Positions 1 through 62,542 of a DNA stretch of 64,000 nt are shown in pieces. The notes below the pieces were generated by a model. It was not told the DNA's origin. It ran no database searches and was given only the letters and a program-made list of their open reading frames with translations. Numbering within the stretch: position 1 is the first letter of the stretch; the number at the start of each line of letters is the position of its first letter. Position numbers and translations under genes: made by a program. The DNA lies in contig CAWDRG010000009.1 in assembly GCA_963804645.1 (NCBI GenBank), positions 716,693-780,692 on the forward strand. The letters run 5' to 3'. The DNA comes from an uncultured Bacillota bacterium (lineage in GTDB: Bacteria; Sysuimicrobiota; Sysuimicrobiia; Sysuimicrobiales; Segetimicrobiaceae).

Positions 1-283
1 CGTACGGGGATCGAACCTGAAGCTTGACGGCCACGTCGCGCAGCCGTCTCAACATGTGGTCGTGCAGCCGCGCGACCTGCGTGACGATCACCTCAGGATC
101 CTCACCGTTTTCTGCCAGACACTCCATCATCGAACAGAAGAGCGCCTGGGGCAGACGCGTCGCGCAATCGAGCGCTTCCTCGACGGTCAGCTTCCCGGAT
201 CGTTCCGCGCCCTTGACCTGCGCCCAGAGCTTGTCGAAGAGCATGTACGCCACCTCGTCTGGGACGTCTGTGTGAGGGTTGCG
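1..283 (-). CDS. hypothetical protein, partial (runs off left edge)
   Basis: Reverse-strand reading from ATG at 283-281 gives a clean ORF (MRNPHTDVPDEVAYMLFDKLWAQVKGAERSGKL...) with coding-like third-position GC. No recognisable family. Confidence 0.45.
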
Positions 284-491
284 CATGCGGCGGTCGCGCG
301 TTGCGTCATTATCCTAAGGGCGGAGGTCGGTTGCGGCAAGCCACGTCGCGAACATGCTCGGTTCACTCCGCTAACGTGCCGCACCATTCGCGCCGGCGGC
401 GCCGATGTCGGCGGCGGCCGTGTAGTGTACTATTAGGCCGGGCCCCGCGTGGGGACGTTCGAGACAGACGTGATGTGAAAGAGGTGCTTGC

Positions 492-1337
492 ATGGATCAC
501 AGCCGCAACCTTGTCACGCCAGCCTGGCTGGCCGCGCACGTGGCGGACCCGGCGGTCGTGATCATCGACTGCCGCTTCGACCTGACGAACCCGCGTGCCG
601 GGCGCGAGGCGTATGACCACGCGCACATCCCCGGGGCCGTTCACTTGGACCTTGAGCGCGATCTTTCCGGACCGAAAGCGCCTCACGGCGGACGGCACCC
701 GCTGCCGGAGATGTCCCGATTCGCCGAGAAGATCGGCCGCGTCGGCATCGACGAGCGGGTGGTGGTGGTGGCGTACGATGCGCAGAACGGGTCCTTCGCT
801 GCGCGGCTGTGGTGGATGCTCCGCTATCTCGGGCACGATCGCGTCCAGGTGCTTAACGGTGGATGGCAGGCGTGGCAGCGGGGCGGCTTTCCGACGACCG
901 CCGATGTCCCGACGACTATGTCGCGCAGGTTCGTGCCGAAGCTCAGGTCCGGCGTGCTGGTGGACATCGATGACCTGCGGGCTCGGCTGAAGCGTCCGGG
1001 CACGCGCCTCGTGGACTCGCGCACGCCCGAGCGCTACCGCGGGGACGTCGAACCGCTCGATCCGGTCGCCGGACACATTCCCGGGGCCGTCAACCTCCCG
1101 TGGACGGACAACCAGGACGAGACGGGCGCGATGAAACCGGTGGAGGATCTGCGGCGGCGCTTCGCGGGCCTTCGAGAGGGAGACGCCCAGCCGATCGTCT
1201 ACTGCGGATCGGGCGTCACCGCCTGCGCGAACCTGCTCGCGATGGAGGAGGCGGGTCTTGCCGATGCCGTGCTCTATGTCGGCGGCTGGAGCGATTGGTG
1301 TTCCTATCCGGATAACCCGGTCGCGACGCGCGACTAG
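492..1337 (+). CDS. thiosulfate/3-mercaptopyruvate sulfurtransferase (tandem rhodanese domains)
   Basis: 281 aa with two rhodanese modules. The active-site Cys sits in CGSGVTAC, plus GHIPGA motifs typical of SseA/TST-type sulfurtransferases. Confidence 0.85.
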   Translation: MDHSRNLVTPAWLAAHVADPAVVIIDCRFDLTNPRAGREAYDHAHIPGAVHLDLERDLSGPKAPHGGRHPLPEMSRFAEKIGRVGIDERVVVVAYDAQNGSFAARLWWMLRYLGHDRVQVLNGGWQAWQRGGFPTTADVPTTMSRRFVPKLRSGVLVDIDDLRARLKRPGTRLVDSRTPERYRGDVEPLDPVAGHIPGAVNLPWTDNQDETGAMKPVEDLRRRFAGLREGDAQPIVYCGSGVTACANLLAMEEAGLADAVLYVGGWSDWCSYPDNPVATRD

Positions 1338-1555
1338 CGCGGCACGCCGGCCCGCACCGCGCAGCGATGGGGGCGGGACCACTCGGTGGCCCCATCCCGG
1401 TGACTGAGTGTATTCTCTCCTGACTTCTTGCGCTCGGCCGAGAGGGGTTGTCTCCGTTGATTCCGGCGCTCCGCGCCTCGCGGCCCCGAGCTGTCGGGCC
1501 AGGTCCGGATCTATTTAGTGGCGCTCGTTCGTTCGACAGCAGAGTAAAGTTCTGT

Positions 1556-1582
1556 TTGACAACATGACCGGGTGAATATAAA
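1556..1582 (+). promoter_or_regulatory. putative sigma70-like promoter of the XRE/TPR regulator gene
   Basis: TTGACA followed 14-15 nt later by TATAAA/ATATAA, about 35 nt upstream of the GTG start at 1618, in a locally AT-richer stretch. Confidence 0.3.
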
Positions 1583-1617
1583 CTCGTGCAAGAGTCTGAG
1601 CGCCGGGGGGCGCACCC

Positions 1618-2916
1618 GTGGTGTTGACGCTCGGGGAGAAGATCCGAACCGCGCGGCTCGATTGCAGGCTTACGCAGGAGCAACTGGCCGGCCGAGAGTT
1701 CACAAAATCCTACGTCTCCGAACTTGAACGCGGCACCCGAACTCCTCGCTTGACGACTCTCAAGGTGCTTGCCAGGCGGCTCAATCGTCCCTTGTCCTAT
1801 TTTCTCGATGGCGTGCTCGAGGACCGCGAGCCTGAAGCGTTTCTTGAGATCGGCGTCGCCCACATGCACGCGGGAGCGCTGTCAGAGGCGCAGGCCTCCT
1901 TCGATCGAGCGCTCGAGCTCGCGGCGCAGCACGATGACGAGGTGCTCGAGATTCGGATCGAGCTCTCGATGACGGTTGTCGAGCGCCAGTTGGGACGCGC
2001 CGGGGCGGCATGGAAGCGGGTCAACCGGTGCATTCAGGCGCTCGGCCAGAGCGGCGACCGGGCCCTGCTGGCCCAGGCCCAGGCGCTCCTTGGGTGGCTG
2101 CGCCTCGACGCCGGCGATGCATCCTCGGCGCTGTGGGCGTTCGAGGCGGCGCTCCAACTCGTGAAACTGCTGCCCCCCGACCCGGCCGTGCTGGCCGACC
2201 TTCACGCGGGACTCGGAGAAGCGCATCTGCAGCTCGGTCGCGGCGACGAATCCGAGCGAGCGTTCCGTGCCGCGCTCTCCACCGCGGAGCCGTACCGCGA
2301 CCCGTCCCACGTCGCATCATGGCATCTCGACCGCGCGGTCGTGGCGTCGCAGAGTGGTCACTTTGACGACGCGACCGAACAGGCCATGCGGGCCCTGGCC
2401 GTCTACCACACGATGGCCCACAAGCGCCGTCTGGCTGGAATCCATCAAGCGCTAGGGCGGGCCGAGGCCGCGAGCGGGCGGTGGGCCGAGGCGGAACATC
2501 ACTACAGGTCGAGCGTGGCGCTGCAGTGCGCGGCGGCGAACTGGCCAAAGGCGGCGGAGATTCTCGGCGTGATGGCGGAGACCGTGCTCGCCCGTACCTG
2601 GCCTGACGGCGCCCGGGCGATCGGAGAGACCGCGCTGGCGCTTCTGTCCTACGACGAAGGACACCGCGATCGGGCCGACTACCTGCGCGTGCGCGGGATG
2701 CTCTGTCGTTTGCTCGGGAAGGCCGATGAGGCGCGCACTGCGCTCGACGAGAGCCTGCGCTTGCTCGAAGCGACGGAGCGTGACCGCGAGATTGGAGTGA
2801 TCCGGCTCGAGCTCGCGCTGCTGGCGATCGAGACGCGGGATCTTGACGCGGCGCGCCATCAGCTCAAGATGCTTCGCGACAGCGCGCCGCCGCACCACCC
2901 GTCGAGTGGGTTCTAA
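1618..2916 (+). CDS. XRE-family HTH transcriptional regulator with C-terminal TPR-like repeats
   Basis: N-terminal Cro/C1-type HTH (LGEKIRTARLDCRLTQEQLAG...SYVSELERG) followed by ~350 aa of Ala/Leu-rich helical repeats. GTG start. Confidence 0.8.
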   Translation: MVLTLGEKIRTARLDCRLTQEQLAGREFTKSYVSELERGTRTPRLTTLKVLARRLNRPLSYFLDGVLEDREPEAFLEIGVAHMHAGALSEAQASFDRALELAAQHDDEVLEIRIELSMTVVERQLGRAGAAWKRVNRCIQALGQSGDRALLAQAQALLGWLRLDAGDASSALWAFEAALQLVKLLPPDPAVLADLHAGLGEAHLQLGRGDESERAFRAALSTAEPYRDPSHVASWHLDRAVVASQSGHFDDATEQAMRALAVYHTMAHKRRLAGIHQALGRAEAASGRWAEAEHHYRSSVALQCAAANWPKAAEILGVMAETVLARTWPDGARAIGETALALLSYDEGHRDRADYLRVRGMLCRLLGKADEARTALDESLRLLEATERDREIGVIRLELALLAIETRDLDAARHQLKMLRDSAPPHHPSSGF

Positions 2917-3467
2917 CTTCCGCCGCCCCTTCGGGGCGGTGATCTCTCGCCCCGCGGCAGGTGCGCCGTCACGGCGCGCGCGCGGTCGTCTCAGAAGAAC
3001 CTCCACTCCCCGTAGAGGAAGTAATAGGCGAGGACGCGAGTCAAATAGACGATCAGCCGCATGAGGACGTAGCTGATCGCCAGCAGTCCTAGAAAGAACC
3101 AAATCCGAAACTTCCACTCGGGCGCGGGGCGCCTGATCGACCGTCACCCAACCTTTCTTCGCGCTGGTGCCCGTACGTCAGGGTGGGCCGCGTCTCTGCG
3201 TCCGGGTGCCGATCGTTCGCGGACCGGCCGCCGGGGCTCCACGACACGGCTCTTCTGGCTCTTCGCGCGCGTTCCTGTCCGGCGCGCTGCGCCCGAGACA
3301 GGGGCGGACCTCCACAACTTCTTCGCAGGGTCCACGTGAGTTTTGCATGAGTTTGTCGCGGGAACTTCACGGGCAGTCGCTATCGTGGTGGGCGAGGCGC
3401 AGGAGACGGTTCGCCACAGTATCCGAGGCCGCAGCCGTCGACCCGCCCCCTGAAAGGAGATGGCGTC

Positions 3468-3653
3468 ATGTTGCGGGTACGCTGCCCTGAGTGCGGAGCT
3501 GAATCCGAGGTCATGCCACAGTATGGGCACGAAGTCGTGTCGGTGTACTGCCTCAAGCATACCGGCGGAGCCGAATGCCACACCCGCCCGGTGTACATGA
3601 CGCCGATCCCCGCGGTCCAGGGGGCAGCCGCGCGCGAGCCGGTGGCCGCCTAA
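3468..3653 (+). CDS. small zinc-ribbon protein (61 aa)
   Basis: Strong SD (AAAGGAGA) 7 nt upstream of the ATG. CPECG...C..H...CH arrangement suggests a Zn ribbon. Confidence 0.45.
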   Translation: MLRVRCPECGAESEVMPQYGHEVVSVYCLKHTGGAECHTRPVYMTPIPAVQGAAAREPVAA

Positions 3654-3754
3654 CCCCGGATGCGGCGTCCGGGGCTTGGTGACGGCGCGACACGAATGCG
3701 AAGCGGCCGGCCGACCAGGTGCGCCCCGGTGGCCGGCCGCCGTGGGCGAGGACT

Positions 3755-3783
3755 TTGACAGGCGATGCTGATCTTGGGATAAT
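3755..3783 (+). promoter_or_regulatory. promoter of tRNA-Val
   Basis: Consensus -35 TTGACA, 17-nt spacer, -10 GATAAT, about 28 nt upstream of the mature tRNA 5' end. Confidence 0.55.
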
Positions 3784-3811
3784 GTTGGGTGCTCGCGATC
3801 GCGGCGTCTGG

Positions 3812-3886
3812 GGGCGGTTAGCTCAGGGGTAGAGCGCATCCTTCACACGGATGAGGCCGCAGGTTCAAGACCTGCACCGCCCACCA
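3812..3886 (+). tRNA. tRNA-Val (anticodon CAC)
   Basis: Manual cloverleaf: acceptor GGGCGGT/ACCGCCC, D-arm GCTC-AGGGGTA-GAGC, anticodon arm CATCC-TTCACAC-GGATG, T-arm GCAGG-TTCAAGA-CCTGC, discriminator A, encoded CCA. Confidence 0.9.
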
Positions 3887-3924
3887 CACACCTCTTTGCA
3901 CCGGACATGACACGTGGAGCGACA

Positions 3925-4140
3925 ATGATCGTCCGATACGATAGCGACGCCGATGTGCTTCTTGTCAAATTGCGAGACGAGCCTCCGACCGACACTGTCG
4001 AAGAAGAAGGCGGGGTCATCATCAGCTACGGGGACAAAGGGCTCCCTGTGAGCGTGGAGTTCCTTAACGCTTCGCGGCACGGCTTTGTTCAGCGCCGGGA
4101 CCCAACTGTCACGTTGGCCGGTCTAAAGGCGTCAGCGTAG
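3925..4140 (+). CDS. DUF2283 family small protein
   Basis: MIVRYDSDADVLLVKL...GLPVSVEFLNAS matches the DUF2283 pattern (YDxxxDxLxIxL ... GxxVxxExxxAS). Sits directly downstream of tRNA-Val. Confidence 0.6.
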   Translation: MIVRYDSDADVLLVKLRDEPPTDTVEEEGGVIISYGDKGLPVSVEFLNASRHGFVQRRDPTVTLAGLKASA

Positions 4141-4149
4141 GCAACTCTT

Positions 4150-5830
4150 GATCTAATTTAGTTCGCCATGAAAAACGTGGGCGCAAACCCTTGTAAAATC
4201 TGGGTTTCCATGCGCGGTGCGAGCGCAAAATGATAGGATTCCCGACCCGAAGATCGAACTGATGCAACGGCCAAGCAACACCGATTCGACGCTCCTGGGA
4301 GGGAATCCCAATGCCGCTTCTTCGCGCTCCGGTTCCCGGCTCCTGCTCCCGAGGCCGGCCATGTTGAGGCTGCGGGACCCGCAAGGCTCGCTGTGGGATC
4401 AACTCCTCCCCGTCCAAGCGCGGACGCTGAGTGCCGAGTTGACCGCCGTGGATACGTGCTTGGCCGATGAGCGGTTCTTCGAGCCCTACCTGCAGCGCTT
4501 CAACACGCTGATCGGCCGGCCGACCGTCCGGTCGAGACGTACCTGCGCTTGATGTATCTGAAGCATCGGTACCGCCTCGGCTATGAGTCCCTGGTCAAGG
4601 AAGTCACGGACAGCCTGCACTGGCGCCGATTCTGCCATCTGGCGTTGGACGCGCCGGTGCCCGCACGCGACCACGCTGAGCAAGCTGACCCGGAAGTACG
4701 GGCCCGACGTCGTGCACGACTTGAATCGGGCCCTGGTCCAGCGCGCTCGCGAGCACAAGCTCATGCGGTGCCGCAAACTGCGCATGGATACGACGGTGGT
4801 GCAAGCGCCCATCGACTATCCGACGGACATCGGGCTGCTGGCCGACAGTGCGCGGGTCGTGACGCGAACGGTGCGCCAGCTCCAGGCCGCGGGCGTGGCG
4901 GTGCGGACGGGCTTGCGCTCCCGGGCCCGCAGCATCAAGCGCGCGCTGGCCACCGTCGGCCGCAGTTTGCGCATGCGGACGGACGAGGCGAAGCAGGCCG
5001 TGCTCAAGCAGACGGCCCGCGTGCTCACGGGCACGAAACAAATCGGCCGGCAGGCGGAGCGGGTGCTGCGCAACAGTCGGCACGTCGGGCAGCACATCGA
5101 CGCGAAGACGGCCGCGATGGTGAAGCGGACGCGCGTCCGGCTGCGGCGCCAACTCGAGTTGACGGCGCCGGGTCGTCACGCCAAACGCGGACGCGTCTCA
5201 AGGGGACGACGACGATTCCGGATCGGATCGTCAGCGTGTTTGATCCCGAAGCCCGTCCCATCCGCCGCGGCAAGCTGAGCGCGAAGACGGAGTTCGGCTA
5301 CAAGGCGCTGCTCACCGAGACCGAAGATCGGCTGATCACGCACTACGAAGTCCATATGCGAAATCCGGAAGACGGCAGTCTGCTGCCTGCGGCGTATGCG
5401 GGACACACCGAGACGGTGCCGGGGACGCCACACGTCGTCGCCACCGATCGCGGGTTTGGCACCAAAGACAATGAGGCATTTCTTGAACAAGGCCGGCGTG
5501 AAGCAGCATCAGCCTTCCCATAAAGGAAGGACGAGCGCGGCGCGCGCCGCGCATGAACGCCAACGATGGTTCCGTCGACAACAACGATGGCGCAGTGGGC
5601 AGGAAGCGACGATCAGCCTGGGCAGCCGCAAGTATGGATGGCGATACAGTCGATTGCGCGGTCGCAGCTGGTGCCGATACGTGGATCGGGTTCGGAATTC
5701 TGGCCCACAATCTGGACCGAATCGTGGTGTTGGGGACAACGACGATGAGCTTCAGCGCAAACGATCACTTCCACACTGGCCGCGCGAGCGCGTGCAGGCA
5801 CGATCTCGTGTTCGCCACCATTTAAGCCTC
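4150..5830 (+). mobile_element. degenerate IS5/IS1182-family insertion sequence
   Basis: About 1.6 kb carrying an IS5/IS1182-type transposase split over at least three reading frames. Boundaries are approximate; terminal inverted repeats could not be defined by eye. Confidence 0.6.
4361..5830 (+). pseudogene. IS5/IS1182-family DDE transposase, frameshifted pseudogene
   Basis: Hallmarks are spread over frames 2/1/2/1: N-terminal SLWDQLLP...FFEPYLQRF...GRPTV then YLRLMYLKHRYRLGYESLVKEV; mid PHATTLSKLTRKYGPDVVHDLNRAL...MDTTVVQAPIDYPTDIGLL; C-terminal IVSVFDPEARPIRRGK...EFGYKALLTE...ITHYEV...ATDRGFG...ILAHNLDRI. Confidence 0.7.
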
Positions 5831-5939
5831 TCGGCAGAACCGTGTCGACCGGAGCACCCGAGCACGCGGGCGGATCACGTCAGCGGAATGGCTTCCGCAG
5901 TCACCGTTTGCTCGGATCCTAACATGCGGTGGAGCGGCA

Positions 5940-6729
5940 GCAGCTCGTTCACGCCGCGCAGGGTACGGATGTACTGGATACGCGGCGCAGTGGATCACGG
6001 CGCGTGAACTCGCTGAACTGGAACCGGACATCGACCCAAACGTGATCGGCGACGGGCCCGTCATGTTTTTCCGCAACGAAGGGTGGCTTGACCCGGTTCC
6101 GCACACGCACGCAATGCTCTCTGCGGCGATCCGTACGGGTGCTGCGCTCCATACTGGCTCGCGGGTGATCGAAACGCGCATTGAGTGCGGACGCGTGGTG
6201 CAGGTGAAGACCGCGTCTGGCGCGACCTTCAATACCGAGGTCGCAGTGCGCTACGCCGGACGGTGGGTCAGTGACGTGGCCCGTCTCGCCGGGGTGACGA
6301 TCCCACTGGCACCGACCGTCGGGTTGCTCGTCACGACGACTCCGGCTCCCACGTGCCTCCGCCGCATCGTGCTCGTGCCCGATTGCGATCTTCGGCCCGA
6401 CGGCGCCGGCCGGCTGAGGCTGCACATGGAAGACACAGACGCCGATGCTTCCGCCGGCTCAAGACCTCGTTCGCCGGGCCGCCCGGGTGCTGCAGGGGTT
6501 CGACGGAGTCAAGGCGGAAGCGGCCAGAAGCGGCATACGACCAATGCCGGTAGACCGTCACTCGGTGGTCGGGCCGATTCCGGGTGTCGACGGATACTAT
6601 GTGGTGGTGACGCACAGCGCAGTGACACTGGCCGCCTTCCTCGGCCAAGCGGTGGCCGAGGAGATCGCGCATGGCCGTGTCGACGTTCACCTGACGCCCT
6701 TCCGACCGGCGAGGTTCTTTGTGGCGTAG
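5940..6729 (+). pseudogene. FAD-dependent oxidoreductase (DAO family) C-terminal fragment, truncated and frameshifted
   Basis: ELAELEPDIDPNVIGDGPVMFFRNEGWLDPVPHTHAMLSAAIRTGAALHTGSRVIE...VQVKTASGATFNTEVAVRYAGRWVSDVARLAGVTIPLAPTVGLLVTT is typical of the DAO C-terminal half. The C-terminus continues in another frame (GIRPMPVDRHSVVGPIPGVDGYYVVVTHSAVTL...), the N-terminal FAD-binding half is absent, and the fragment abuts the IS. Confidence 0.6.
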
Positions 6730-6970
6730 GAGGGACAGCGATCCGCTCGGAGCCGTGATCGTCGTTCGCAGTTTCAGAAGCGCAGGGACGTCACACCGCA
6801 CGCGCGAAGGAACGCCTAGGCTGCCGTCCCCACCGGGACGTCCTTGCTCGTGGGGCTCGGTTGTGATTGGCGAGATGAGGAGCCCGTCGATATGACGTAC
6901 GAACCTGTCCGGCCAAAGAGTTTTGCGGACCGACGTTCGATCGTCCCGGACCCGGGAGCCCACCGATCCC

Positions 6971-8710
6971 ATGGAATCTAATGAGTCTCATCCATCGACG
7001 AGTCTGGCACCGACATTTCGAGTCCGCGCGCTGGAGATCCACAGTGACTACGCATGGAATTTCGAATGGGTGCAAAAGGCGCTCGCCTTCATGGAACGGC
7101 GGGCGCTCAACGCACTAATCCTCCATCGGAACGACATCGTGGACAATGTCGTGTATCCGGGGCGATATTTCGGGGCCGATCGTCGTCCCTACCGGAACAT
7201 CGTGGAGCGCTACCAGGACAGCTTCAGGACATTGTACCGGTACACGCCGACGCGGCGAAGCCGGCCGCTTCAACATCGGGACTATCTGGTGCGGGTCATC
7301 GAGCAGGCCCGGCGGCGTGGCATCGACGTGTATCTCCAAAATAAGGAGCTGTGGTTTCCGGACATCCTGCTGGAACTCCACCCCGAAGTGTGGATCGACG
7401 GGACCGTCTGCGCCACGCACCCGTTTTGGTGGGAGTTCGTCGAGACGAAATACACCGAGCTGCTGGAGGACTTTCCGGGACTCGCCGGCATCATCACCTC
7501 GCCGGGCACGGGGGAGAGCCGGGTGTCGATCGCCGCGAATCGCTGCGCGTGCGATCGTTGTCGAGCTACCGCACCGCGCGACTGGTATCGCCGGCTGCTG
7601 GACGCCATGCGCGGCCCGATCGTACGCGCCGGGAAGCGCCTCGTGGTTCGAGACTTCGTATTCGACGCCGCGGCGCAGGGCGAATTGGCCGCGGCCATGG
7701 AAACGTTCCCACCAGACGTGGTCGTCTCCCTGAAGAACACGCCCCACGACTACTATCCAACGTTTCCCCACAATCCCCGCATCGGACGCGTTGGGGACCA
7801 TGCGCAGTGGGTCGAGTTTGACGTGATGGGTCAATACTTCGGCTGGGGGCTGGGGATCAGCGTGATGACCGACGACCTGCGCGCGCGGATGCGCTACGGG
7901 CGCGCCCGTGGGGTCTCCGGTGTGATCTTTCGGACCGATTGGGAAGGGCTCGAAGCGCACACGGCGTTCCACACACCGAATCTCCTCAGCCTGTACGCGG
8001 GATCGGCCCTGGCGGTGAATCTCGACACGCCCGCCGCGACGATCGCCGGCGACTGGCTCGACGGAGAAGATCTCCTCCGCCCCGATTTGGACGCCGCCTC
8101 TCGTACCGCCACCGCCGCGCGGGTCGCCGATGCCTTCGGGCGTACCTGGGACATCGTCCGGCGCAGCCTCTATCTCAACGATTGCGTCTTTTCCGACTCC
8201 AGCCTGTACCCCGTCAGCCTCGAACACGCGTGGTGGCTGGCGGAAGAGAAGAACAGTTTGCGCAACTGGGATCCGTCGAAATCGGACGCGCTCTCGGTCG
8301 TCGACGAGGCGCACGTTCGTGCGCTGCTCGAGGAGAAGGACGAGGCCGTCCGGTTGGTCGCCTGGCTGGCCGATGCGGTGGGCGAGCTTCAGGACGTGCT
8401 GACCGACGCCGCGTGGCGCGACCTCCAGTGGCGCGTTGATGTCTTTCGACGTTACGTCTTGGGATTTCGCACGATCGCGCACGCCTGCGTCCTGACGAAG
8501 TACCTCGCCGACGAGGCGGGGCGCGCCCGAGTCCCATTTGCCGACACGGCGGATGCGTTGTGGCAGGCGCGGCTCGGCGACCTCCGGGCGCTCGCCGCCG
8601 AATTCGACGAGTTCGCGGCGGCGACGTCGCTGCCGTACACGGTCTATCTGGTTCTGAATCCCGAACGCCTGCGAGCGCTCGCGAACGACCTCGAGGCTCG
8701 GCGAAGGTAG
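6971..8710 (+). CDS. uncharacterised ~580-aa protein, paralog A (putative TIM-barrel glycosidase-like; conserved C...CxCxxC)
   Basis: Long ORF, about 70% identical to paralog C and about 35-40% to paralog B in this window. Shared motifs HRNDIVD, GRYFG, NKELWFPD, SPGTGESR-x9-CACDRC, RLVVRDFVFD, KNTPHDYYPTFP, GQYFGWG, RGVSGVIFRTDWE. Start is taken at MESNESHP by alignment with paralog C; the alternative ATG at 6923 cannot be excluded. Confidence 0.7.
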   Translation: MESNESHPSTSLAPTFRVRALEIHSDYAWNFEWVQKALAFMERRALNALILHRNDIVDNVVYPGRYFGADRRPYRNIVERYQDSFRTLYRYTPTRRSRPLQHRDYLVRVIEQARRRGIDVYLQNKELWFPDILLELHPEVWIDGTVCATHPFWWEFVETKYTELLEDFPGLAGIITSPGTGESRVSIAANRCACDRCRATAPRDWYRRLLDAMRGPIVRAGKRLVVRDFVFDAAAQGELAAAMETFPPDVVVSLKNTPHDYYPTFPHNPRIGRVGDHAQWVEFDVMGQYFGWGLGISVMTDDLRARMRYGRARGVSGVIFRTDWEGLEAHTAFHTPNLLSLYAGSALAVNLDTPAATIAGDWLDGEDLLRPDLDAASRTATAARVADAFGRTWDIVRRSLYLNDCVFSDSSLYPVSLEHAWWLAEEKNSLRNWDPSKSDALSVVDEAHVRALLEEKDEAVRLVAWLADAVGELQDVLTDAAWRDLQWRVDVFRRYVLGFRTIAHACVLTKYLADEAGRARVPFADTADALWQARLGDLRALAAEFDEFAAATSLPYTVYLVLNPERLRALANDLEARRR

Positions 8711-11236: not shown

Positions 11237-12121
11237 TCATTCGGCCTCGACCAGCCGCAGGTATAGAACATACAGCAGCACGAGCACGCCGAGCGATACC
11301 ACGACCATCGCCGCGGCGCTCCCCATCTGGAAGAACTGGAACGCCGCTTTGAAGATGTGCACGCTGAGCATGTCCGTCGCGTTTCCGGGCCCGCCCCCGG
11401 TCATCACAAAGGGCTCGGCGAACAGGCGAAACGCCTCCATCGCGCGCAACAGCGCGGCGACCAGCAGCGTGTCGAAGATCACCGGCACCGTCACGCGGGT
11501 AAAGCACCCCCACCGCGAGGCCCCGTCGAGCTGCGCCGCCTCGTAGAGTGCGCCCGGCACGGTTTCGAGCGCGGACAGGCTCAGCAGAAACGTGAACGGC
11601 GTCCAGTGCCAGACGTCCATCAGCATCACCGAAACGAGCGCCAGCCGCGTGCTGGTCAGCCAGGCCACGCCCGGCAGCCCGAGTAGCCGCAGGCCGGCGT
11701 TGATTGGACCGAGGGTGTCGTTGAAGAGGATGTACCAGATGAGTCCGACCACTGCCGGCGTGATTACCATCGGGGAGATCACGACCGTCTTCAGCAGGTC
11801 GTTGGCGCGCGCGCCCCCGTGAACGAAGACGGCGAGCGCGAGCCCCAGGGTGACCTCGACCACCGTGACGACGACCATGAAGCCCAGCGTGCGGCCGATC
11901 GAGCCGACAAACGCGGGATCGGCCGCCAGTTGGAGGTAGTTCTGCACGCCGGCGAACACCGGCGACGACTGCTCTTGCAGGTTCCAGGTCGTCAGGCTGA
12001 GGTAAATCGTGTACAGCGCCGGCAGGATGCGCCCAACGACCAGGTACGCCATCCCGGGTACGAGGAAAAACCACAGCGCGAGATCTCGCCGCCGCCGGAC
12101 CGAGACCGCCGGCGCAATCAC
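11237..12121 (-). CDS. carbohydrate ABC transporter permease (MalF-like)
   Basis: TM-rich with the ABC permease signature (YEAAQLDGASRWGCFTRVTVPVI). GTG start overlaps the stop of the upstream paralog C gene (GTGA), indicating translational coupling. Confidence 0.8.
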   Translation of the reverse strand: MIAPAVSVRRRRDLALWFFLVPGMAYLVVGRILPALYTIYLSLTTWNLQEQSSPVFAGVQNYLQLAADPAFVGSIGRTLGFMVVVTVVEVTLGLALAVFVHGGARANDLLKTVVISPMVITPAVVGLIWYILFNDTLGPINAGLRLLGLPGVAWLTSTRLALVSVMLMDVWHWTPFTFLLSLSALETVPGALYEAAQLDGASRWGCFTRVTVPVIFDTLLVAALLRAMEAFRLFAEPFVMTGGGPGNATDMLSVHIFKAAFQFFQMGSAAAMVVVSLGVLVLLYVLYLRLVEAE

Positions 12122-13839
12122 CGAAGGCGCGCCCGCAGGTCGTCCGCCAGCGCCCGGAGGCGCTCCGGGCTGAGCAGGATGTAGACTACGTGGGACAAGG
12201 ACGTGGATTGCGCCAACGCGTCGAACTCGGCCGCGAGCGCCTCGAGGTCGCTGAGCCGCGCATCGAGGGTCTTCCGCGCCTCGTGGACCCACTGTACGCG
12301 GTCGCCGGCGCCGTCCTCAGTGACCGCCTTGGTCAGGACGCAGGCGTGTCCGGCGGCGCGAAACGCGGCCGTATACCGGCGGAACACGTCGAAGCGGGTC
12401 ACGAGATCCCCGTGCGCGCTGTCGCTCAAGACGTCACCGAGGTCCGCGACCTCCGCGCAGAGCCTCTCAACCAGGCGCAGCGCGTCATCCTTCTCCTCGA
12501 GCAGGCGGCGGACGTTGTCGGGGTCGTCGACCCGGAGCGCGCCCGCCCGGGATGGATCCCAGTCCTTCAGGCTGTTCTTTTCTTCCGCCAGCCACCACGC
12601 GTGGTCCAGGCTGACCGGCAGGTTGCTGGAGTCCGAGAAGACGCAGTCGTTCATGTACAGGCTCCGCCGCACAATCTCCCAGGTTTGATCGAGCACGCGC
12701 GCGACGCGGTCCGCCGCGGCCAGCCGGACCGCGGGCGCCAGGCCCGGGCGCAGGAGGTTCTCCTGGTCGAGCCATTGCCCGACAACCGCGGCCCCGGGCG
12801 TTTCCAGATCCTGGGCGAGCGCGGCACCGGCATAGAGGCTGACCACGTTCGGGCTATGAAACGTCGTGTGCGCTTCGAGCCCTTCCCAGTCGGTGCGGAA
12901 CACCACGCCGCTGGCTCCGCAGGCGCGCGCATGGCGGAAGCGCACGCGGAGATCCTCCGTCATCACGGCGATCCCGATGCCCCAACCGAAATACTGACCC
13001 AACACGTCGAACTCGATCCACTGTTCGTGGGCGCCCACCCGTCCGATCCGGGGATTGTTGGGGAACGTCGGGTAGTAGTCGTGGGGTGTGTTCTTGAGTT
13101 CGATGACCACGTCTGCCGGCAGCGCCTCCATGGCGGCTACGATCTCGGCCTGTGCCGCCGCGTCGAAGACGAAGTCCCGCACTACGAGGCGCTTGCCCAC
13201 CCGCGCGATCGGCTCGTACATCGCTTCGAGCAGCTGCCGATACCATTCCCGGGGCGTGGTGGAGCGGCACCGTGCGCAGGTGCACCGGTTCGCCGAGATC
13301 GAAACGCGGCTCTCCCCGGTTGCGGGCGAGGTAATGATCCCTGCCAGCCCGGGCAGGTCTTCAAACAACTCCGTGTACTTCGTCCGGACGAACTCCCACC
13401 AAAACGGGGCAGTCGCGCACACCGTGCCGTTCTTCCAGAGGTCCGAGTGCAGTTCGAGCAGGATCTCCGGGAACCATAACTCTTTATTCTGGAGATACAC
13501 GTCGATGCCGTAGCGGTGGGCTTCGTGGACGACCCGCCGCAGATAGTCGCGCCGCTGCAACGGTCCACTGCGCCGCGTCGGCGTATACCGGTACAACGTG
13601 CGGTACATGTCTTGATACCGCTCGAAGATGTTGCGATACGTCCGCCGGTCCGCGCCGAAATATCGCCCCGGGAACACCACCTGATCGATGATGTCGTTCC
13701 GCTGCAGGGCTAGCGCGTTGAGGCCGTGCGCCTGCGCGAATCGGAGTGCTCGCTGCACCCAGGGAAAATCCCATACGTACTCGCTGTTGATTTCGAGCAG
13801 CCGGGTACGAAACACGGGCTCCGTTTCGCTGGTTTCCAT
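12118..13839 (-). CDS. uncharacterised ~575-aa protein, paralog C (same family)
   Basis: METSETEP start. LQRNDIIDQ, GRYFGADRR, NKELWFPE, SPATGESR-x9-CTCARC, RLVVRDFVFD, KNTPHDYYPTFPNNP, GQYFGWG, RACGASGVVFRTDWE. First gene after the solute-binding protein in the operon. Confidence 0.75.
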   Translation of the reverse strand: METSETEPVFRTRLLEINSEYVWDFPWVQRALRFAQAHGLNALALQRNDIIDQVVFPGRYFGADRRTYRNIFERYQDMYRTLYRYTPTRRSGPLQRRDYLRRVVHEAHRYGIDVYLQNKELWFPEILLELHSDLWKNGTVCATAPFWWEFVRTKYTELFEDLPGLAGIITSPATGESRVSISANRCTCARCRSTTPREWYRQLLEAMYEPIARVGKRLVVRDFVFDAAAQAEIVAAMEALPADVVIELKNTPHDYYPTFPNNPRIGRVGAHEQWIEFDVLGQYFGWGIGIAVMTEDLRVRFRHARACGASGVVFRTDWEGLEAHTTFHSPNVVSLYAGAALAQDLETPGAAVVGQWLDQENLLRPGLAPAVRLAAADRVARVLDQTWEIVRRSLYMNDCVFSDSSNLPVSLDHAWWLAEEKNSLKDWDPSRAGALRVDDPDNVRRLLEEKDDALRLVERLCAEVADLGDVLSDSAHGDLVTRFDVFRRYTAAFRAAGHACVLTKAVTEDGAGDRVQWVHEARKTLDARLSDLEALAAEFDALAQSTSLSHVVYILLSPERLRALADDLRARLR

Positions 13840-13867
13840 GTGCGTTCGACGCGCCAACCGCGCGTCC

Positions 13868-40686: not shown

Positions 40687-41245
40687 CCTCGCCGGGTCGC
40701 GAACGGATCGGGCCCCGACGGCGCATCGCGCGCCGCCGGGGCTCTTCGTGTGTGCGCCCGGTGCGCCGGGGCGGCCCCTCCGCTCATCGCGCGCGAGGTC
40801 GGTCGAGAGGTCGCCGCGCACGTGCACGTCCCCGCGTGCCGGGGCACGGCTCATGTGAGACATCACACCACTCCGTTCGTCTGTATACATGTAGTGATCA
40901 TGCGCGGCGATGTCCGTGCCGCGCGCCGCTCCCCAGGCGGGGGAGCCGTGAGAACGTGTCTCATCGACCGGCCACACACGAGCCCGATCGGATGAGACCG
41001 CGTTCTTGATGGGCGGGGTAGGACGGGTGTTCTGTATGGGGTCAGCGGCGGATCTTGCAACCTATCGCCGCGCCGCGATTCGGGCGAATTCTGGGGCTGC
41101 TCGACGGAGGCCTCTGGTTCTCTCAAAATCTTTCAAGATTCCTCCGAGTTCCAGGAGGAAAAAAGCAAGTAGTGTCGTATGTAGGGTATGCGAGGGCCAA
41201 AATAGGCCCCCCTGGACACCAAATATCGAAAGGAGGGCCCAATTC

Positions 41246-41290
41246 GTGGCAACCAAGAAGAAGGCAGCCAAGAAGGGTAAGAAGCGCTAA
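41246..41290 (+). CDS. 14-aa lysine-rich mini-ORF (candidate leader peptide)
   Basis: GTG start 9 nt after a GGAGG SD. Peptide VATKKKAAKKGKKR carries 7 AAG Lys codons. A GC-rich hairpin lies 24 nt downstream. Confidence 0.3.
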   Translation: MATKKKAAKKGKKR

Positions 41291-41313
41291 ATCGCAATTA
41301 GGTACGGCTTTTC

Positions 41314-41350
41314 CCGGGGGGTGCTGCCCGAATGAGGCAGGGCCCCCCGG
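41314..41350 (+). terminator. GC-rich hairpin (terminator/attenuator-like)
   Basis: CCGGGGGG-(TGCTGCCCGAATGAGGCAGGG)-CCCCCCGG with an inner CTGCC/GGCAG pairing, followed by ACGTTTTCC. Confidence 0.4.
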
Positions 41351-41431
41351 ACGTTTTCCCGGGCGGCGCGCGCATCGCGGCGCGCCGAGGCGGCGGAGGA
41401 TGATGTCCGCTCCGGGCGAAACCTTCGCCGT

Positions 41432-42538
41432 ATGACGGATCCCAGGATCGAGAAGCTCGCCCGCGTCCTGATCCACTACGCGCTCCGCCTGGAACCCGGC
41501 CAGCTCCTGCGCATCCGCGGGCCCGCGCTCGCCGCGCCGCAGATTCTCGCCGCGTATCGTGAGGCGCTGGTCGCCGGCGCGCATCCGACGGTGCGGATCA
41601 GCGTCGAGGGCCTCGACGACATCTACTACCGCACGGCCACGGACGACCAGTTGCGCTACGTCTCGGCGCTCGACCGGCACGAGGTCGAGACGCTCGACGC
41701 GGAGCTGTCGTTTCTCGGCGCCTACAACACCCGGGCGATGACGCGGGTCGATCCCGGCCGGATGCGGATGCGCCGCGAGGCGACGCGGGAGCTGAGCCAG
41801 CGGTTCATGGAGCGGGCCGGCGCGGGCACGCTGCGGTGGTGCCTCACGCAGGCGCCGACCCAGGCCGACGCCCAGGAAGCGGAGATGTCGTTCGGCGAGT
41901 ACGAGGCGTTTGTATACGGCGCGGGGCATCTCGATGAAGACGATCCGGTCGCGGCGTGGGAGCACGTCGCGCGCGAGCAGGCGGCCGTCTGCGAGCGGCT
42001 CGCGCGCATGCGGACCCTGCGCATCGTCGCGCCGGACACCGATCTGACCGTGCACGTCGCCGGCCGCAAGTGGATCAGCGCGGCCGGGACGCACAACTTC
42101 CCGGACGGCGAGGTCTTCACGGGGCCGGCGGAGGACGCGACGCGCGGCACCGTCCGCTTCAGCTTCCCGGCGCTGTACGGCGGGCGCGAGGTCACCGACG
42201 TGCGCCTCGTGTTCGACGGCGGACGCGTCGTCTCGGCGACCGCGGCGAAGGGCGAGCAGCTCCTCCAGGCGATGCTCGACGTCGACGCGGGCGCCCGGGT
42301 CCTGGGCGAGTTCGCGTTCGGCCTCAACTACGGCATCCAGCAGTTTACGCGCAACATCCTGTTCGACGAGAAGATCGGCGGGACGCTCCACATGGCGCTC
42401 GGGGCCGCGTACCCGGAGACCGGCGGGAAGAACACGTCCGGCCTGCACTGGGATATGATCCTGGATCTGCGGGAGAACGGCGCGGAAGTCTTCGCCGACG
42501 GCGAGGTCGTCTACCGGAACGGCCGCTTCCTCACGTAG
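41432..42538 (+). CDS. aminopeptidase, M29 family (AmpS/PepS/aminopeptidase T-like)
   Basis: 368 aa with M29 family hallmarks (LARVLIHYAL, GTHNFPDGEVFTGP, FDEKIGGTLHMALG). Confidence 0.8.
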   Translation: MTDPRIEKLARVLIHYALRLEPGQLLRIRGPALAAPQILAAYREALVAGAHPTVRISVEGLDDIYYRTATDDQLRYVSALDRHEVETLDAELSFLGAYNTRAMTRVDPGRMRMRREATRELSQRFMERAGAGTLRWCLTQAPTQADAQEAEMSFGEYEAFVYGAGHLDEDDPVAAWEHVAREQAAVCERLARMRTLRIVAPDTDLTVHVAGRKWISAAGTHNFPDGEVFTGPAEDATRGTVRFSFPALYGGREVTDVRLVFDGGRVVSATAAKGEQLLQAMLDVDAGARVLGEFAFGLNYGIQQFTRNILFDEKIGGTLHMALGAAYPETGGKNTSGLHWDMILDLRENGAEVFADGEVVYRNGRFLT

Positions 42539-42827
42539 GCCGCTCCCCGCCGCGCGCGCGCTCGACGCGCTCGAAGAGGGCGGCGAACTCGGCCTCGGTG
42601 CGCTCGGTCACCTCCTCCGCCATCTCGGCGTAGCGGCGTCCCTCACCCGCCTTGATCTGGATGTTGGAGAGGACGCGGCCCTCGAGCTCGCGGAGGAGTG
42701 CGAGCACGTCGTCGGCCGGGACGCTCCCCCAGTCGCCCGCGAGCACGCGGTCCACGAACTCGTCGAGCGGGCGGGCGTCGTCTTCGCACACCTGCGCGTA
42801 CAGCTCCCACAGGCGCGCGCTCATTCG
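42531..42827 (-). CDS. hypothetical acidic small protein (98 aa)
   Basis: ATG overlaps the upstream debranching-enzyme stop (ATGA). Acidic, helical sequence. Confidence 0.45.
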   Translation of the reverse strand, partial: RMSARLWELYAQVCEDDARPLDEFVDRVLAGDWGSVPADDVLALLRELEGRVLSNIQIKAGEGRRYAEMAEEVTERTEAEFAALFERVERARGGERPT

Positions 42828-44809
42828 CCTGCGCCCCCGAGTTCCCACGCCTCGAGCAGCGCGGCGACGCTCCACGCCTGGGCGATGCATCCGGCCGCGC
42901 CGTACGGGGACGCTCCCTCGAAGATCTCGCTCACGGTGCCGAGTCCCGCCTCCAGCAGGTGCGCCCGGAACGGCTCGATGAGGCGGCGCGCCGCCGCGCG
43001 GTCGCCGGTCGCGCGCACGAGCGCCGTCGCGTACGGGCCGAGCCACCACGCCCAGACCGTGCCCTGGTGGTACGCCTCGTCCCGGGAGACGACCCCGCCC
43101 CGGTACCGGCCGCGGTAGGCCGGGTCGTCGGGGGCGAGCGACCGCAGGCCGAACGGCGTCAGCAGCTTCGCTCCCACCGCGCCAAGTACCGCGCGGGCCG
43201 CCGGCCCGTCGACCAGCGCGTGGGGCAGCGAGAGCGCGAGCAGCTGGTTCGGGCGGAGCGACCGGTCGGGCGTGCCGTCCGGCGCGATGACGTCGTACAG
43301 GTAGCCGCCGGCGTCGTAGAAGAACGCGCCCGAGAACGCGCGGCGAACCGCGGCCGCGCCGCTGGCGTACGCGGTGCCGTCCCGGCCGAGCATCTCCGAC
43401 CAGCGCGCCGCGACACACAGCAGTTCGTGCCAGAGCGCGTTCAGGTCGACCGCTTTGCCCATGCGCGGCGTGATCGCGCGGCCGTTCACGCGGGCATCCA
43501 TCCAGGTCAGGGCGAGCCCGGGCTCGCCCGCGGTCAGCAGGCCGTCGGCCGGATCGACGCGGATGCCGTGGCGCGTGCCGGACCGGTACCGTTCCGCGAT
43601 CTCCCGGATCGCCGGGTACACTCGCTCGAGGAGCTCGCGGTCCCACACGCGCGCGAGGTACCGGTCGAGCGCGTGCGCGTACCACAACGCCGAATCCGCG
43701 CTCGTGTACTCCGGAGGGGCGCCGTCGTCCGGGAACCGGTTCGGCAGCATGCCCTCGCTCACCACGTCGGCGAAGGAGCGGAGGATCTCGCGCGCGTCGT
43801 CGAGCCGGCCGGTGGCGAGCGTAAGCCCGGGCAGCGAGATCATGGCGTCGCGCCCCCAGTCCTCGAACCAGTGGTAGCCGGCGATCACCGAGTGCCGGCC
43901 GGCGCCCTGGACGAGGAACGCGTCCGCGGCGAGGACGAGCGCGTCGCGGAGCCCGCCGGGCCCCGGCAGCGTCGTGGGATCGCGCGGGAGCGCGCCGGCG
44001 CGGTCGATCAGCGTCTGCTGCCGGCGGCGCTCGTCTTCGTAGGTGGTGCCGGCCGCGGACGCGTCCGGCTCCGCGGAGACGCGCAGGGTGAGGTCCTCTC
44101 CCGGCTCGAGCGACGCCTCGAACACGCCGGGCACGTAGAGGTCTTCGATCGCGTCGAGCCCGCGGTCGCGCTCGACGCGGTGCAGGACGCGCCAGTACCA
44201 CGCCGGGGAGTCCGCGAAGCGGCCGCGGTCCACCGTGAGCGTGTACGGGACGGCGCCGGGCCAGGGCGTGACGCGGATGCCGCCCGGGATCGGCGCGACG
44301 TCGAACTGCCACCCGGGGTCGCCGTAGGTGTGCGTGTGGTGATCGCGCTCGGTCAGGTAGGGCCGGATCGCCATGCGCAGCGCCGGGCCGCCCGGGAGCA
44401 GCCGGTACCGGACGCAGGCGGTGTTCCGTCCGCGCGGCATCCAGACCGCCTTCTCGAGCACGGCGCCGGAGACCGCGAACGTCCAGACGGGAATCGAGCC
44501 GTCGAGCCGGAAGCCCGCGAGCGAGCGGTACCCCTCCGGGTCGATCGTCCCGTCGGCGTACTCGTTCGTCCCGAGCTCGACGAGGCGGCCGCGTCCATCG
44601 CGGAGATCGATCGTCTCGTCGACCTTCGCGACCAGCACGGTGCGGCGGACGGGCGGGGCGAGCGCGGCGACGAGGAGGCCGTGATAGCGGCGGGTGGTCG
44701 CGCCGGACACGGTCCCGGACGCGTAGCCGCCGATGCCGTTCGTGACGAGCCACTCGCGGCGGAGCGCCGCGTCGAGAAACGAGAGGAGGGAGTCCGGCAG
44801 GCTCAGCAT
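42821..44809 (-). CDS. glycogen debranching enzyme family protein (amylo-alpha-1,6-glucosidase, GDE N- and C-terminal domains)
   Basis: 662 aa. N-terminal GDE_N-like region (TNGIGGYASGTVSGATTRRYHGLL) and C-terminal (alpha/alpha)6-barrel region with GYHWFEDWGRD, typical of archaeal-type GDE/GH133. Confidence 0.8.
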   Translation of the reverse strand: MLSLPDSLLSFLDAALRREWLVTNGIGGYASGTVSGATTRRYHGLLVAALAPPVRRTVLVAKVDETIDLRDGRGRLVELGTNEYADGTIDPEGYRSLAGFRLDGSIPVWTFAVSGAVLEKAVWMPRGRNTACVRYRLLPGGPALRMAIRPYLTERDHHTHTYGDPGWQFDVAPIPGGIRVTPWPGAVPYTLTVDRGRFADSPAWYWRVLHRVERDRGLDAIEDLYVPGVFEASLEPGEDLTLRVSAEPDASAAGTTYEDERRRQQTLIDRAGALPRDPTTLPGPGGLRDALVLAADAFLVQGAGRHSVIAGYHWFEDWGRDAMISLPGLTLATGRLDDAREILRSFADVVSEGMLPNRFPDDGAPPEYTSADSALWYAHALDRYLARVWDRELLERVYPAIREIAERYRSGTRHGIRVDPADGLLTAGEPGLALTWMDARVNGRAITPRMGKAVDLNALWHELLCVAARWSEMLGRDGTAYASGAAAVRRAFSGAFFYDAGGYLYDVIAPDGTPDRSLRPNQLLALSLPHALVDGPAARAVLGAVGAKLLTPFGLRSLAPDDPAYRGRYRGGVVSRDEAYHQGTVWAWWLGPYATALVRATGDRAAARRLIEPFRAHLLEAGLGTVSEIFEGASPYGAAGCIAQAWSVAALLEAWELGGAGE

Positions 44810-62062: not shown

Positions 62063-62324
62063 GCGGTCCACCCGGCGTCGTGGCGCCATAGATCCTTGTC
62101 CGAGTCCAGAGTGACGTGCTGATTCCGTGAATCTCGCGGGCGACCTCTCTACATCGCACGTCAGATGGGGCGGTTGTGGGAGATTCCCCGAAAACGCACT
62201 CGGAATACGCACGCCAGTGGCCGGATCTCCATGTCCACTCCGGATTTCCGCACCAAGCTGACGGATTCCGCTCGGGACTCCTTCGTATACGGTGGTCGTG
62301 TCTTCCCCACGGTGTCGCCCACTT

Positions 62325-62420
62325 CTCGCGATCGAGACGCGGGATCTCGACTCGGCGTGCCACCACCTCAAGATGCTTCGCGACAGTGCCCCGCCGCGCC
62401 ACCAGTCGGGCGGGCTCTGA
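62325..62420 (+). pseudogene. fragment duplicating the 3' end of the XRE/TPR regulator gene (compare 2821-2916)
   Basis: About 85% nucleotide identity over ~96 bp, by hand alignment, to the last 32 codons of the 1618-2916 gene. Reads IETRDLDSACHHLKMLRDSAPPRHQSGGL* versus AIETRDLDAARHQLKMLRDSAPPHHPSSGF*. No upstream coding continuation. Confidence 0.6.
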
Positions 62421-62542
62421 GTTCCGGAATGCGCCGCGGCACGGCGCCGACGGGTCGCGCAGAGACGCCGCTCCACCGGCAGGATCGTTCTTACGCGCCT
62501 CCGAAGGGTGCCCACGCCGACGGGCTGAATCGGGGAGGCGGT

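Follow-up and report, generated by a model that had tools for sequence, protein, structure and literature searches.

A probable layered scar of mobile DNA downstream of a tRNA-Val(CAC) gene, with a polymorphic ISNCY-family insertion sequence and an older truncated oxidoreductase gene

When a truncated gene lies directly beside an insertion sequence (IS), did the IS cause the truncation? The question is raised by positions 3755-6760 of a 64-kb stretch of contig CAWDRG010000009.1 (the whole stretch is here referred to as the window), where a valine transfer RNA gene (tRNA-Val, anticodon CAC) is followed by a small gene of the DUF2283 family, an IS with a broken transposase gene, and the C-terminal part of a gene for a flavin adenine dinucleotide (FAD)-dependent oxidoreductase. 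An earlier note on this DNA proposed that the IS had inserted in or next to an intact oxidoreductase gene, that an adjacent deletion had then removed its 5' half, and that both had subsequently decayed. We find that the IS inserted cleanly into a pre-existing DUF2283-oxidoreductase junction, without adjacent deletion, because the DUF2283 flank and the oxidoreductase remnant are already joined in an allele without the IS and because the target duplication is undisturbed in a filled allele. The locus as a whole we consider likely to be a layered mobile-DNA scar 3' of a working tRNA-Val(CAC) gene, composed of an island relic, a polymorphic IS, and an older pseudogene. The features that carry the first of these conclusions are as follows, in window coordinates.

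3925-4140, + strand: intact DUF2283 (YuzE-like) gene, 71 amino acids (aa) (Pfam PF10049)
4154-4160: left copy of the 7-bp target-site duplication, TAATTTA (comparison with contigs L031, L001, and L026)
4161-5819, + strand: ISNCY-family insertion sequence, window variant W (NCBIfam NF033593; alignment to intact copies)
5820-5824: remnant of the right copy of the duplication, ATTTA (comparison with L001)
5825-5975: 151 bp between the IS target and the first oxidoreductase homology, identical in L001 and L031
5976-6729, + strand: DAO-family FAD oxidoreductase pseudogene, C-terminal two thirds (own profile; Pfam DAO)

The empty site and the truncated oxidoreductase gene

Contigs of the same locus (n=5) were recovered by exact look-up of the DUF2283 protein and the oxidoreductase fragment and through the closest transposase homologues. 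One of them, L031, from an NCBI metagenome-assembled genome labeled Candidatus Acidoferrales, matches window positions 1590-4160 and 5820-6553 and represents the empty site that the earlier note had suggested seeking in related sequences. Its junction reads CTCTTGATC TAATTTA AGCCTCTCGG (in short form, GATC-TAATTTA-AGCC), with one copy of the heptamer and no IS. The filled site is intact in L001 (17 kb), where an IS of 1671 bp has perfect 19-bp inverted repeats (GTTCGCCATGAAAAACATG), TAATTTA on both sides, and an intact 460-aa transposase. The identical intact variant, again with TAATTTA on both sides, is present in L026, and the left junctions of L002 and L003 are as in L001. Outside the IS, L001 and the window differ at 13 positions in 12.4 kb; inside it, they differ at 216 positions and by 13 insertions or deletions (indels).

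The window's own copy, about 1.66 kb long, begins with the left inverted repeat GTTCGCCATGAAAAAC at 4161-4176. On the right, 20 bp are deleted, of which 18 come from the end of the IS and 2 from the start of the right duplication, with a placement that is ambiguous by 2 bp: the junction reads CACC-ATGTTTTTCATGGCGAACTA-ATTTAAGCC in L001 and CACC-ATTTAAGCC in the window, which lacks the right inverted repeat. The ends that the earlier note had placed at about 4150 and 5830 were thus close, the left repeat starting at 4161 and the right end being lost in the deletion. The target-site duplication that it proposed to look for is whole on the left and a perfect 7 bp in L001, but keeps only five of seven bases on the right in the window.

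To delimit the oxidoreductase remnant, we built a profile of 367 positions from 111 full-length relatives. Starting at 5976, one frame matches positions 109-273 and a second frame matches positions 271-366, up to a stop codon at 6727-6729, whereas positions 1-108 have no match anywhere in the 64-kb window. Pfam DAO (PF01266) matches the joined translation at positions 116-352 of 353 (E=1.3e-23). The gene therefore does start mid-protein and carry its own frameshift, as the earlier note had described, and no intact oxidoreductase reads through 5830-6729. The frameshift lies near 6433-6446 and is present likewise in L001, L026, and L031. In positions 5825-5975 we found no DAO profile match in any frame, no island similarity, and no Rfam match; a likeness of "RVDR...SAEWL" at 5832-5915 to the oxidoreductase N-terminal region was rejected, as it has no profile support in any frame.

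These comparisons fix the order of the two later layers. The DUF2283 3' flank was joined to an oxidoreductase gene that lacks its first 108 codons, and with them the FAD-binding end, and that carries the frameshift; all sampled strains share this junction. The ISNCY-family IS of 1.67 kb was inserted later, 13 bp past the DUF2283 stop codon. Truncation of the oxidoreductase by the IS could draw on the position of the IS just 5' of the truncated gene and on the damage to its right end in the window. It is nevertheless refuted and retains only a negligible probability, since L031 without any IS already has the truncated gene joined to the DUF2283 flank at a single TAATTTA, since the IS in L001 and L026 keeps both ends and a perfect 7-bp duplication that an adjacent deletion would destroy, and since truncation and frameshift are alike in alleles with and without the IS. 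A truncated gene beside an IS is thus no proof that the IS caused the truncation.

As to how the junction arose, a single deletion across the distal part of a former island, its right attachment site (attR), and the start of the oxidoreductase gene would explain it. The best full-length relatives of the oxidoreductase are 59% identical, and their contexts (L055-L058) hold a second DAO gene, a glycoside hydrolase, and a sugar transporter. We rejected these contexts as a clue to origin because they amount to a generic sugar-transporter neighborhood whose transporter is not closely related to that of the window. A scan of genome contigs using the 579-aa protein encoded next to the remnant found no closer genome with the ancestral arrangement; the relatives recovered were 34-61% identical, mostly from Alphaproteobacteria, and had no oxidoreductase nearby.

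The insertion sequence: family, target, and alleles

In the window, the transposase region (4361 to about 5745) is split into seven frame segments, and alignment to three intact relatives shows eight 1-bp indels and a 2-bp insertion near the stop codon. The IS of ~1.6 kb with at least three frameshifts that the earlier note recognized is therefore real, and its breaks are more numerous than was thought. Its assignment to IS5/IS1182, in contrast, does not hold. The frame-corrected transposase scores 372.1 bits on the ISNCY model NF033593 (cutoff, 325), covering profile positions 1-442 of 444, and the intact allelic transposases score 402 bits. The same proteins reach 155-177 bits on the IS5 model NF033578 (cutoff, 275) and 110-133 bits on the IS1182 model NF033551 (cutoff, 270), with the window transposase at the lower value each time. 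We consequently rejected the IS5/IS1182 assignment, as window and intact copies alike fail both curated cutoffs and pass that of ISNCY. Distant similarity over the whole length of the transposase (IS5_1, E=4e-45; IS1182, E=2e-31) is accompanied by an N-terminal DUF772 domain, which is common to ISNCY, IS5, and IS1182. More than 4000 proteins are homologous to the transposase at E <= 1e-20; among the 120 homologues listed, identities are 51-93%, almost all are unnamed metagenome sequences, and the full-length ones have 460 aa. No second copy of the IS is present in the window.

Five further insertion sites of related copies also have 7-bp duplications: TAGACTA/TAAACTA, TAGACTA, TAGGTTA (twice, in different contexts), and TAACCTA. 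With flanking bases included, all six sites fit the target YTAR-N-YTAR, which is matched exactly once within the 64-kb window, at the IS site. A YTAR motif in the target is typical of IS5. Together, the empty and filled alleles establish where the elements of an unnamed ISNCY lineage end, that they duplicate 7 bp, and that their YTAR-N-YTAR target is strict.

By eye, each end of the IS can fold back on itself, the terminal GTTCGCCATG being followed by five A or T and then by an imperfect complement, CATGCGCGCAAAC on the left (window 4161-4190) and GTTCGGCACCATG on the right (L001 7585-7623). The 20-bp deletion in the window takes out one arm of the right-end hairpin.

The site is polymorphic, with an empty allele (L031), an intact variant B (L001 and L026), and the window variant W. 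Zero differences separate the three in the flanks 3810-4160 and 5820-6553, and because these immediate flanks are identical, all three alleles are young. Further to the left, the population shows mosaic flank haplotypes. Relative to the otherwise near-identical L001, the window has a 15-bp in-frame insertion (GCCGGCGGCGCCGAT) at 392-406. The IS copies themselves are far more divergent: W is 90.9% identical to A, a further variant that is intact (L025), and 85% identical to B (L001), and the identity between A and B is 79.6%.

What is the state of variant W? With a fourth copy (O) as outgroup, site patterns give the grouping ((W,A),(B,O)), with splits of 68, 20, and 2 and a very short private branch for W. 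A reading of W as an A/B mosaic was rejected, as the patterns fit a short-branch sister of A rather than long tracts. The private changes of W consist of about 10 substitutions, 8 of them synonymous, versus nine indels. Slow decay in place is excluded, because nine indels would imply many non-synonymous changes, yet the private substitutions are few and mostly synonymous; with flanks that are identical among alleles, the decay of the IS that the earlier note described is doubtful.

Two readings of the indels survive this test. Six of the nine indels have an unambiguous placement, and each of these six is no more than one column away from a site at which A and B differ (P about 0.01); several indels show the bases of both variants side by side (for example, GCCC-G-CAC versus GCCG-CAC and GCCC-CAC). 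The length of the source contig, 1.40 Mb, suggests a long-read metagenome assembly, and a consensus drawn from reads of co-existing alleles would yield such indels while the unique flanks stay clean. We therefore lean, if slightly, toward the indels and the missing right end being a consensus artefact of mixed alleles, and give real, recent damage a little under an even chance.

Taken as an account of the whole element, that W is a truly damaged copy is a somewhat weaker but serious contender. By one route, a defective copy would have been moved in trans by a related transposase and would have lost its right end afterwards; by another, a resident intact copy would have been overwritten by ectopic gene conversion from a defective copy elsewhere, and the right junction closed by microhomology (AT). 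The flanks have no 1-bp indels over 12.4 kb relative to L001, which indicates good general accuracy of the assembly; from base 17 on, the left 200 bp of the IS depart from B, so that a non-B element is truly at the site; and the edges of the 20-bp deletion share a 2-bp microhomology. Set against this are the ratio of indels to substitutions, which is far from that of neutral decay, and the position of the indels at variant-differing sites, which makes them look like merged alleles. These broken reading frames were, moreover, found in no assembly other than the source contig. Very improbable, in our view, is a combination of a real indel burst soon after insertion, with few substitutions, and of two variants independently capturing the same 9-bp target in sister strains. 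If it were true, it would point to a process that is prone to indels and acts specifically on the element, for example error-prone repair synthesis linked with transposition. For genome scans there is a caution here, in that the decayed look of an IS in a long metagenome contig may stem from a consensus over co-existing alleles.

Variants B and W most likely represent two independent insertions into a rare preferred target, which we favor over allele replacement because the empty allele exists. Replacement would require a single insertion, later homologous recombination, with DNA of another strain or with another IS copy, that swapped the variants, and precise excision to give the empty allele. 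The mosaic flank haplotypes do indicate that the population recombines, and variant B occurs on two of them (L001/L003 and L002). The variants differ, however, from element base 17 to the end, so that replacement needs crossovers in the flanks and a donor already carrying the other variant at that heptamer. Given an empty allele and a target that is both strict and rare, with one site in 64 kb, repeated insertion is enough to explain the alleles. We thus regard replacement as unlikely.

The DUF2283 gene and a putative integrase-island relic

The oldest layer lies between the tRNA gene and the IS, where three further features are needed.

3755-3783, + strand: sigma-70-like promoter 5' of tRNA-Val (TTGACA, 17 nucleotides, GATAAT, with a TG extension; 11/12 matches)
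3812-3886, + strand: tRNA-Val, anticodon CAC (ARAGORN; Rfam tRNA, 67 bits)
3887-3911, - strand: putative relic of the 3' end of a tyrosine-integrase gene (tblastn with the integrase of contig L037)

As the earlier note stated, a lone DUF2283 gene is present directly 3' of tRNA-Val, at 3925-4140. Its 71-aa protein matches PF10049 at profile positions 2-49 of 49 (E=2.3e-12; 47.3 bits, with a gathering score of 23), and a Shine-Dalgarno sequence, GGAG, lies five bases 5' of its ATG. The promoter 5' of the tRNA is the sole such site within 3300-7100 (0.4 expected from shuffles), and no terminator-like site was found between tRNA-Val and the DUF2283 gene. Since this gene has a Shine-Dalgarno site and no terminator separates it from the tRNA, it is probably transcribed from the tRNA-Val promoter. 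It is invariant across all six contigs of the locus. Its DNA is 83.7% identical to that of the orthologue in L037 (window 3915-4122 aligned), with a ratio of non-synonymous to synonymous substitution rates (dN/dS) of 0.19.

In other genomes, DUF2283 homologues 73-81% identical to the window protein (81% in L037/L038 and 73% in L042-L044) lie in integrase islands within tRNA-Val(CAC), which supports the earlier suggestion that the 3' side of this tRNA is a landing site for mobile DNA. In L037/L038, tRNA-Val(CAC) is followed by an overlapping gene for a 417-aa tyrosine integrase, an HTH_17 excisionase-like gene, a 113-aa gene, an 89-aa DUF2283-like gene, the 71-aa DUF2283 gene, an HEPN_Swt1 gene, two more genes, and attR. 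The attR of L037, some 6 kb away from the tRNA, repeats the 3' end of that gene perfectly over 38 bp; the two 38-nucleotide copies lie at about 1489-1526 and 7460-7497, and 39 bp match the window at 7460-7498. The last 38 nucleotides of the window's tRNA-Val (3849-3886) correspond to this attL/attR core of the related islands. L042-L044 have integrases 87-94% identical to that of L037 and also the DUF2283 gene; a gp49/HTH_37 gene pair is present in L043 and L044, and the HTH_37 gene alone in L042. The occurrence of DUF2283 in two island types with differing cargo suggests that it is a core function of the islands rather than cargo.

Traces of such an island extend to the window. By tblastn, residues 396-417 of the L037 integrase match window 3911-3846 with 82% identity (E=5e-5), so that the last 22 integrase codons remain, 14 of them inside the tRNA; no integrase match was found in the window beyond this relic at tRNA-Val. 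The 25 nucleotides that follow the tRNA (3887-3911) are identical at 17-18 of 25 positions to the island side of L037 and L042, versus only 4-6 of 25 for chromosomal trailers, and window 3812-3906 is 94.7% identical to the L037 tRNA and its next 20 nucleotides. G+C content is 55-59% across 3751-4350, versus 63-70% just upstream (3151-3900). No attR was found in the whole 64 kb when the tRNA 3' end was searched with up to 4 mismatches, and blastn-short within the window gave only 8- to 12-mers, at chance level. A candidate at 40988-41000 (12/13 match, near a synteny boundary) was rejected as chance, with about 2 such matches expected and no tRNA-like Rfam signal. Likewise judged to be chance was a 29-nucleotide repeat, 76% identical, between the tRNA (3845-3873) and the oxidoreductase remnant (6439-6467), where the sequence is conserved coding sequence (PAQDLVRRA).

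By comparison with these relatives, the first layer would have been an integrative island with a tyrosine integrase that used the 3' 38 nucleotides of tRNA-Val as its attachment site. One deletion may have taken out the module of integrase and excisionase genes, which in the closest relative spans about 2.4 kb, and a second may have taken everything past DUF2283, attR included. Left over would be about 25 bp from the 3' end of the integrase gene, together with the DUF2283 gene, which appears to be the only surviving gene of the former tRNA-Val island. Without integrase, excisionase, and attR, such an island would be unable to excise.

That DUF2283 is instead a native chromosomal gene that happens to follow tRNA-Val would fit an intact gene under purifying selection (by the dN/dS value above) that is identical in all strains of the population, and a window without integrase gene and attR. 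We nonetheless hold it to be quite improbable, as the closest homologues on sufficiently long contigs sit in tRNA-Val(CAC) integrase islands, the 25-nucleotide trailer resembles the island side and not chromosomal trailers, G+C content falls over the gene, and the distant relatives L034 and L035 share the arrangement of an XRE-TPR regulator gene and tRNA-Val but have no DUF2283 gene after the tRNA.

Small proteins of the DUF2283 or YuzE-like type appear in some lists as antitoxin-like partners of BECR-fold toxins, of which DUF4258 is an example. The earlier note took such a DUF4258 partner to have been lost. We found no DUF4258 gene or other toxin-like open reading frame among those flanking the window's DUF2283 gene, and no DUF4258 gene was seen next to close DUF2283 homologues. 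The idea of a lost partner stands insofar as the toxin-like neighbors found in the closest intact island are gone from the window, and fails insofar as DUF4258 lies beside no close homologue. In that island, L037, the 113-aa gene has a weak, sub-threshold match to PBECR2 (a BECR-fold nuclease) and overlaps the 89-aa DUF2283-like gene, and the HEPN_Swt1 gene (425 aa) begins 18 bp after the 71-aa DUF2283 gene. Positions 3338-5512 of L037 may thus hold two toxin-antitoxin-like pairs using DUF2283 proteins, for which PADLOC has no model. PADLOC gave no match on the window's DUF2283 locus, a scan of viral contigs held no DUF2283 homologues, a sequence search of the PDB with the DUF2283 protein matched no solved structure, and none of the papers searched connects DUF2283 with DUF4258. 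One paper, PMC4755241, names FseA, a regulator of integrative and conjugative elements, and its relative QseM "DUF2283"; the domain in question is probably DUF2285, which makes a link to the present gene family uncertain, and the paper was not used. A conserved gene of tRNA-Val(CAC) integrase islands is, in our view, a better functional lead for DUF2283 than the toxin-antitoxin label.

Surroundings, weight of the reading, and known systems

Several observations concern the wider region. Metagenome contig L032, 98% identical to window 1-3886, stops precisely at the final base of tRNA-Val, which is the expected assembler break point if strains diverge right after the tRNA. In L035 (7420-13074; regulator 46% and tRNA 96% identical), a homologue of window 41111-43966 lies only 2.6 kb past tRNA-Val, whereas about 37 kb separate the two in the window. 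The scar at 3755-6760 may therefore make up just a small part of the variable region that follows tRNA-Val.

The last 104 bp of the XRE-TPR regulator gene (2813-2917) recur at 62322-62425, 59.4 kb downstream, in the same orientation and with 84% identity. This second copy directly precedes a hydantoinase/dihydropyrimidinase-like gene (to 63922), and in L033 (2744-4870; regulator 89% identical) that gene comes immediately after the regulator and precedes a homologue of window 2990-3410. The 59 kb that hold the tRNA-Val scar thus lie between the two copies of a direct repeat, possibly as the outcome of a large insertion, deletion, or rearrangement.

Past the oxidoreductase remnant, two 579-aa genes, at 6971-8710 (+ strand) and 12118-13857 (- strand), are inverted paralogues with 71% DNA identity that flank an ABC sugar-transporter cluster. 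Neither has a Pfam or NCBIfam match. Their best relatives in genomes (49-61% identical) come from Acetobacteraceae, Bosea, and Microvirga, and the contig is labeled Acidoferrales; this hints that the two genes may have been horizontally acquired.

Five points weigh against the layered reading as a whole. Without attR or an integrase gene, the island rests on an 8-codon relic and one homologous gene. The closest full-length oxidoreductases, at 59% identity, have unrelated contexts, and the remnant may be of either chromosomal or island-cargo origin. No genome was found that is near enough to display the ancestral arrangement. Independent insertion of two elements into the same heptamer is a coincidence that rests on the rarity of the target. 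Finally, compared with a short-read contig, L001, the window is otherwise free of 1-bp indels in 12.4 kb, which weighs against a consensus artefact. The biological weight of the locus is small, since it is a textbook pile-up of mobile DNA beside a tRNA gene in which all components are of known kinds.

With the known kinds themselves, the fit differs from layer to layer. The window's DUF2283 gene is like that of DUF4258-DUF2283 type II toxin-antitoxin pairs in passing the PF10049 threshold and differs in having no adjoining toxin gene in an operon. With IS5 and IS1182, the IS shares the DUF772 N-terminal domain and a distant similarity, but it scores far under both curated cutoffs. It resembles the ISNCY family in having a single gene on about 1.7 kb, inverted repeats at the termini, and a short duplication of the target, and differs in that, among the matches listed, its closest relatives (65-93% identical) are unnamed metagenome sequences; the nearest named ISNCY element found was ISRjo3 of Rhodococcus, and the plasmid transposases concerned are about 40% identical to the window's. 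From the tRNA-Val(CAC) tyrosine-recombinase islands (L037/L038 and L042), the window differs in lacking the integrase gene, the excisionase gene, and attR, with a single island gene left, and it resembles them in using the same tRNA species and in carrying a homologous DUF2283 gene.

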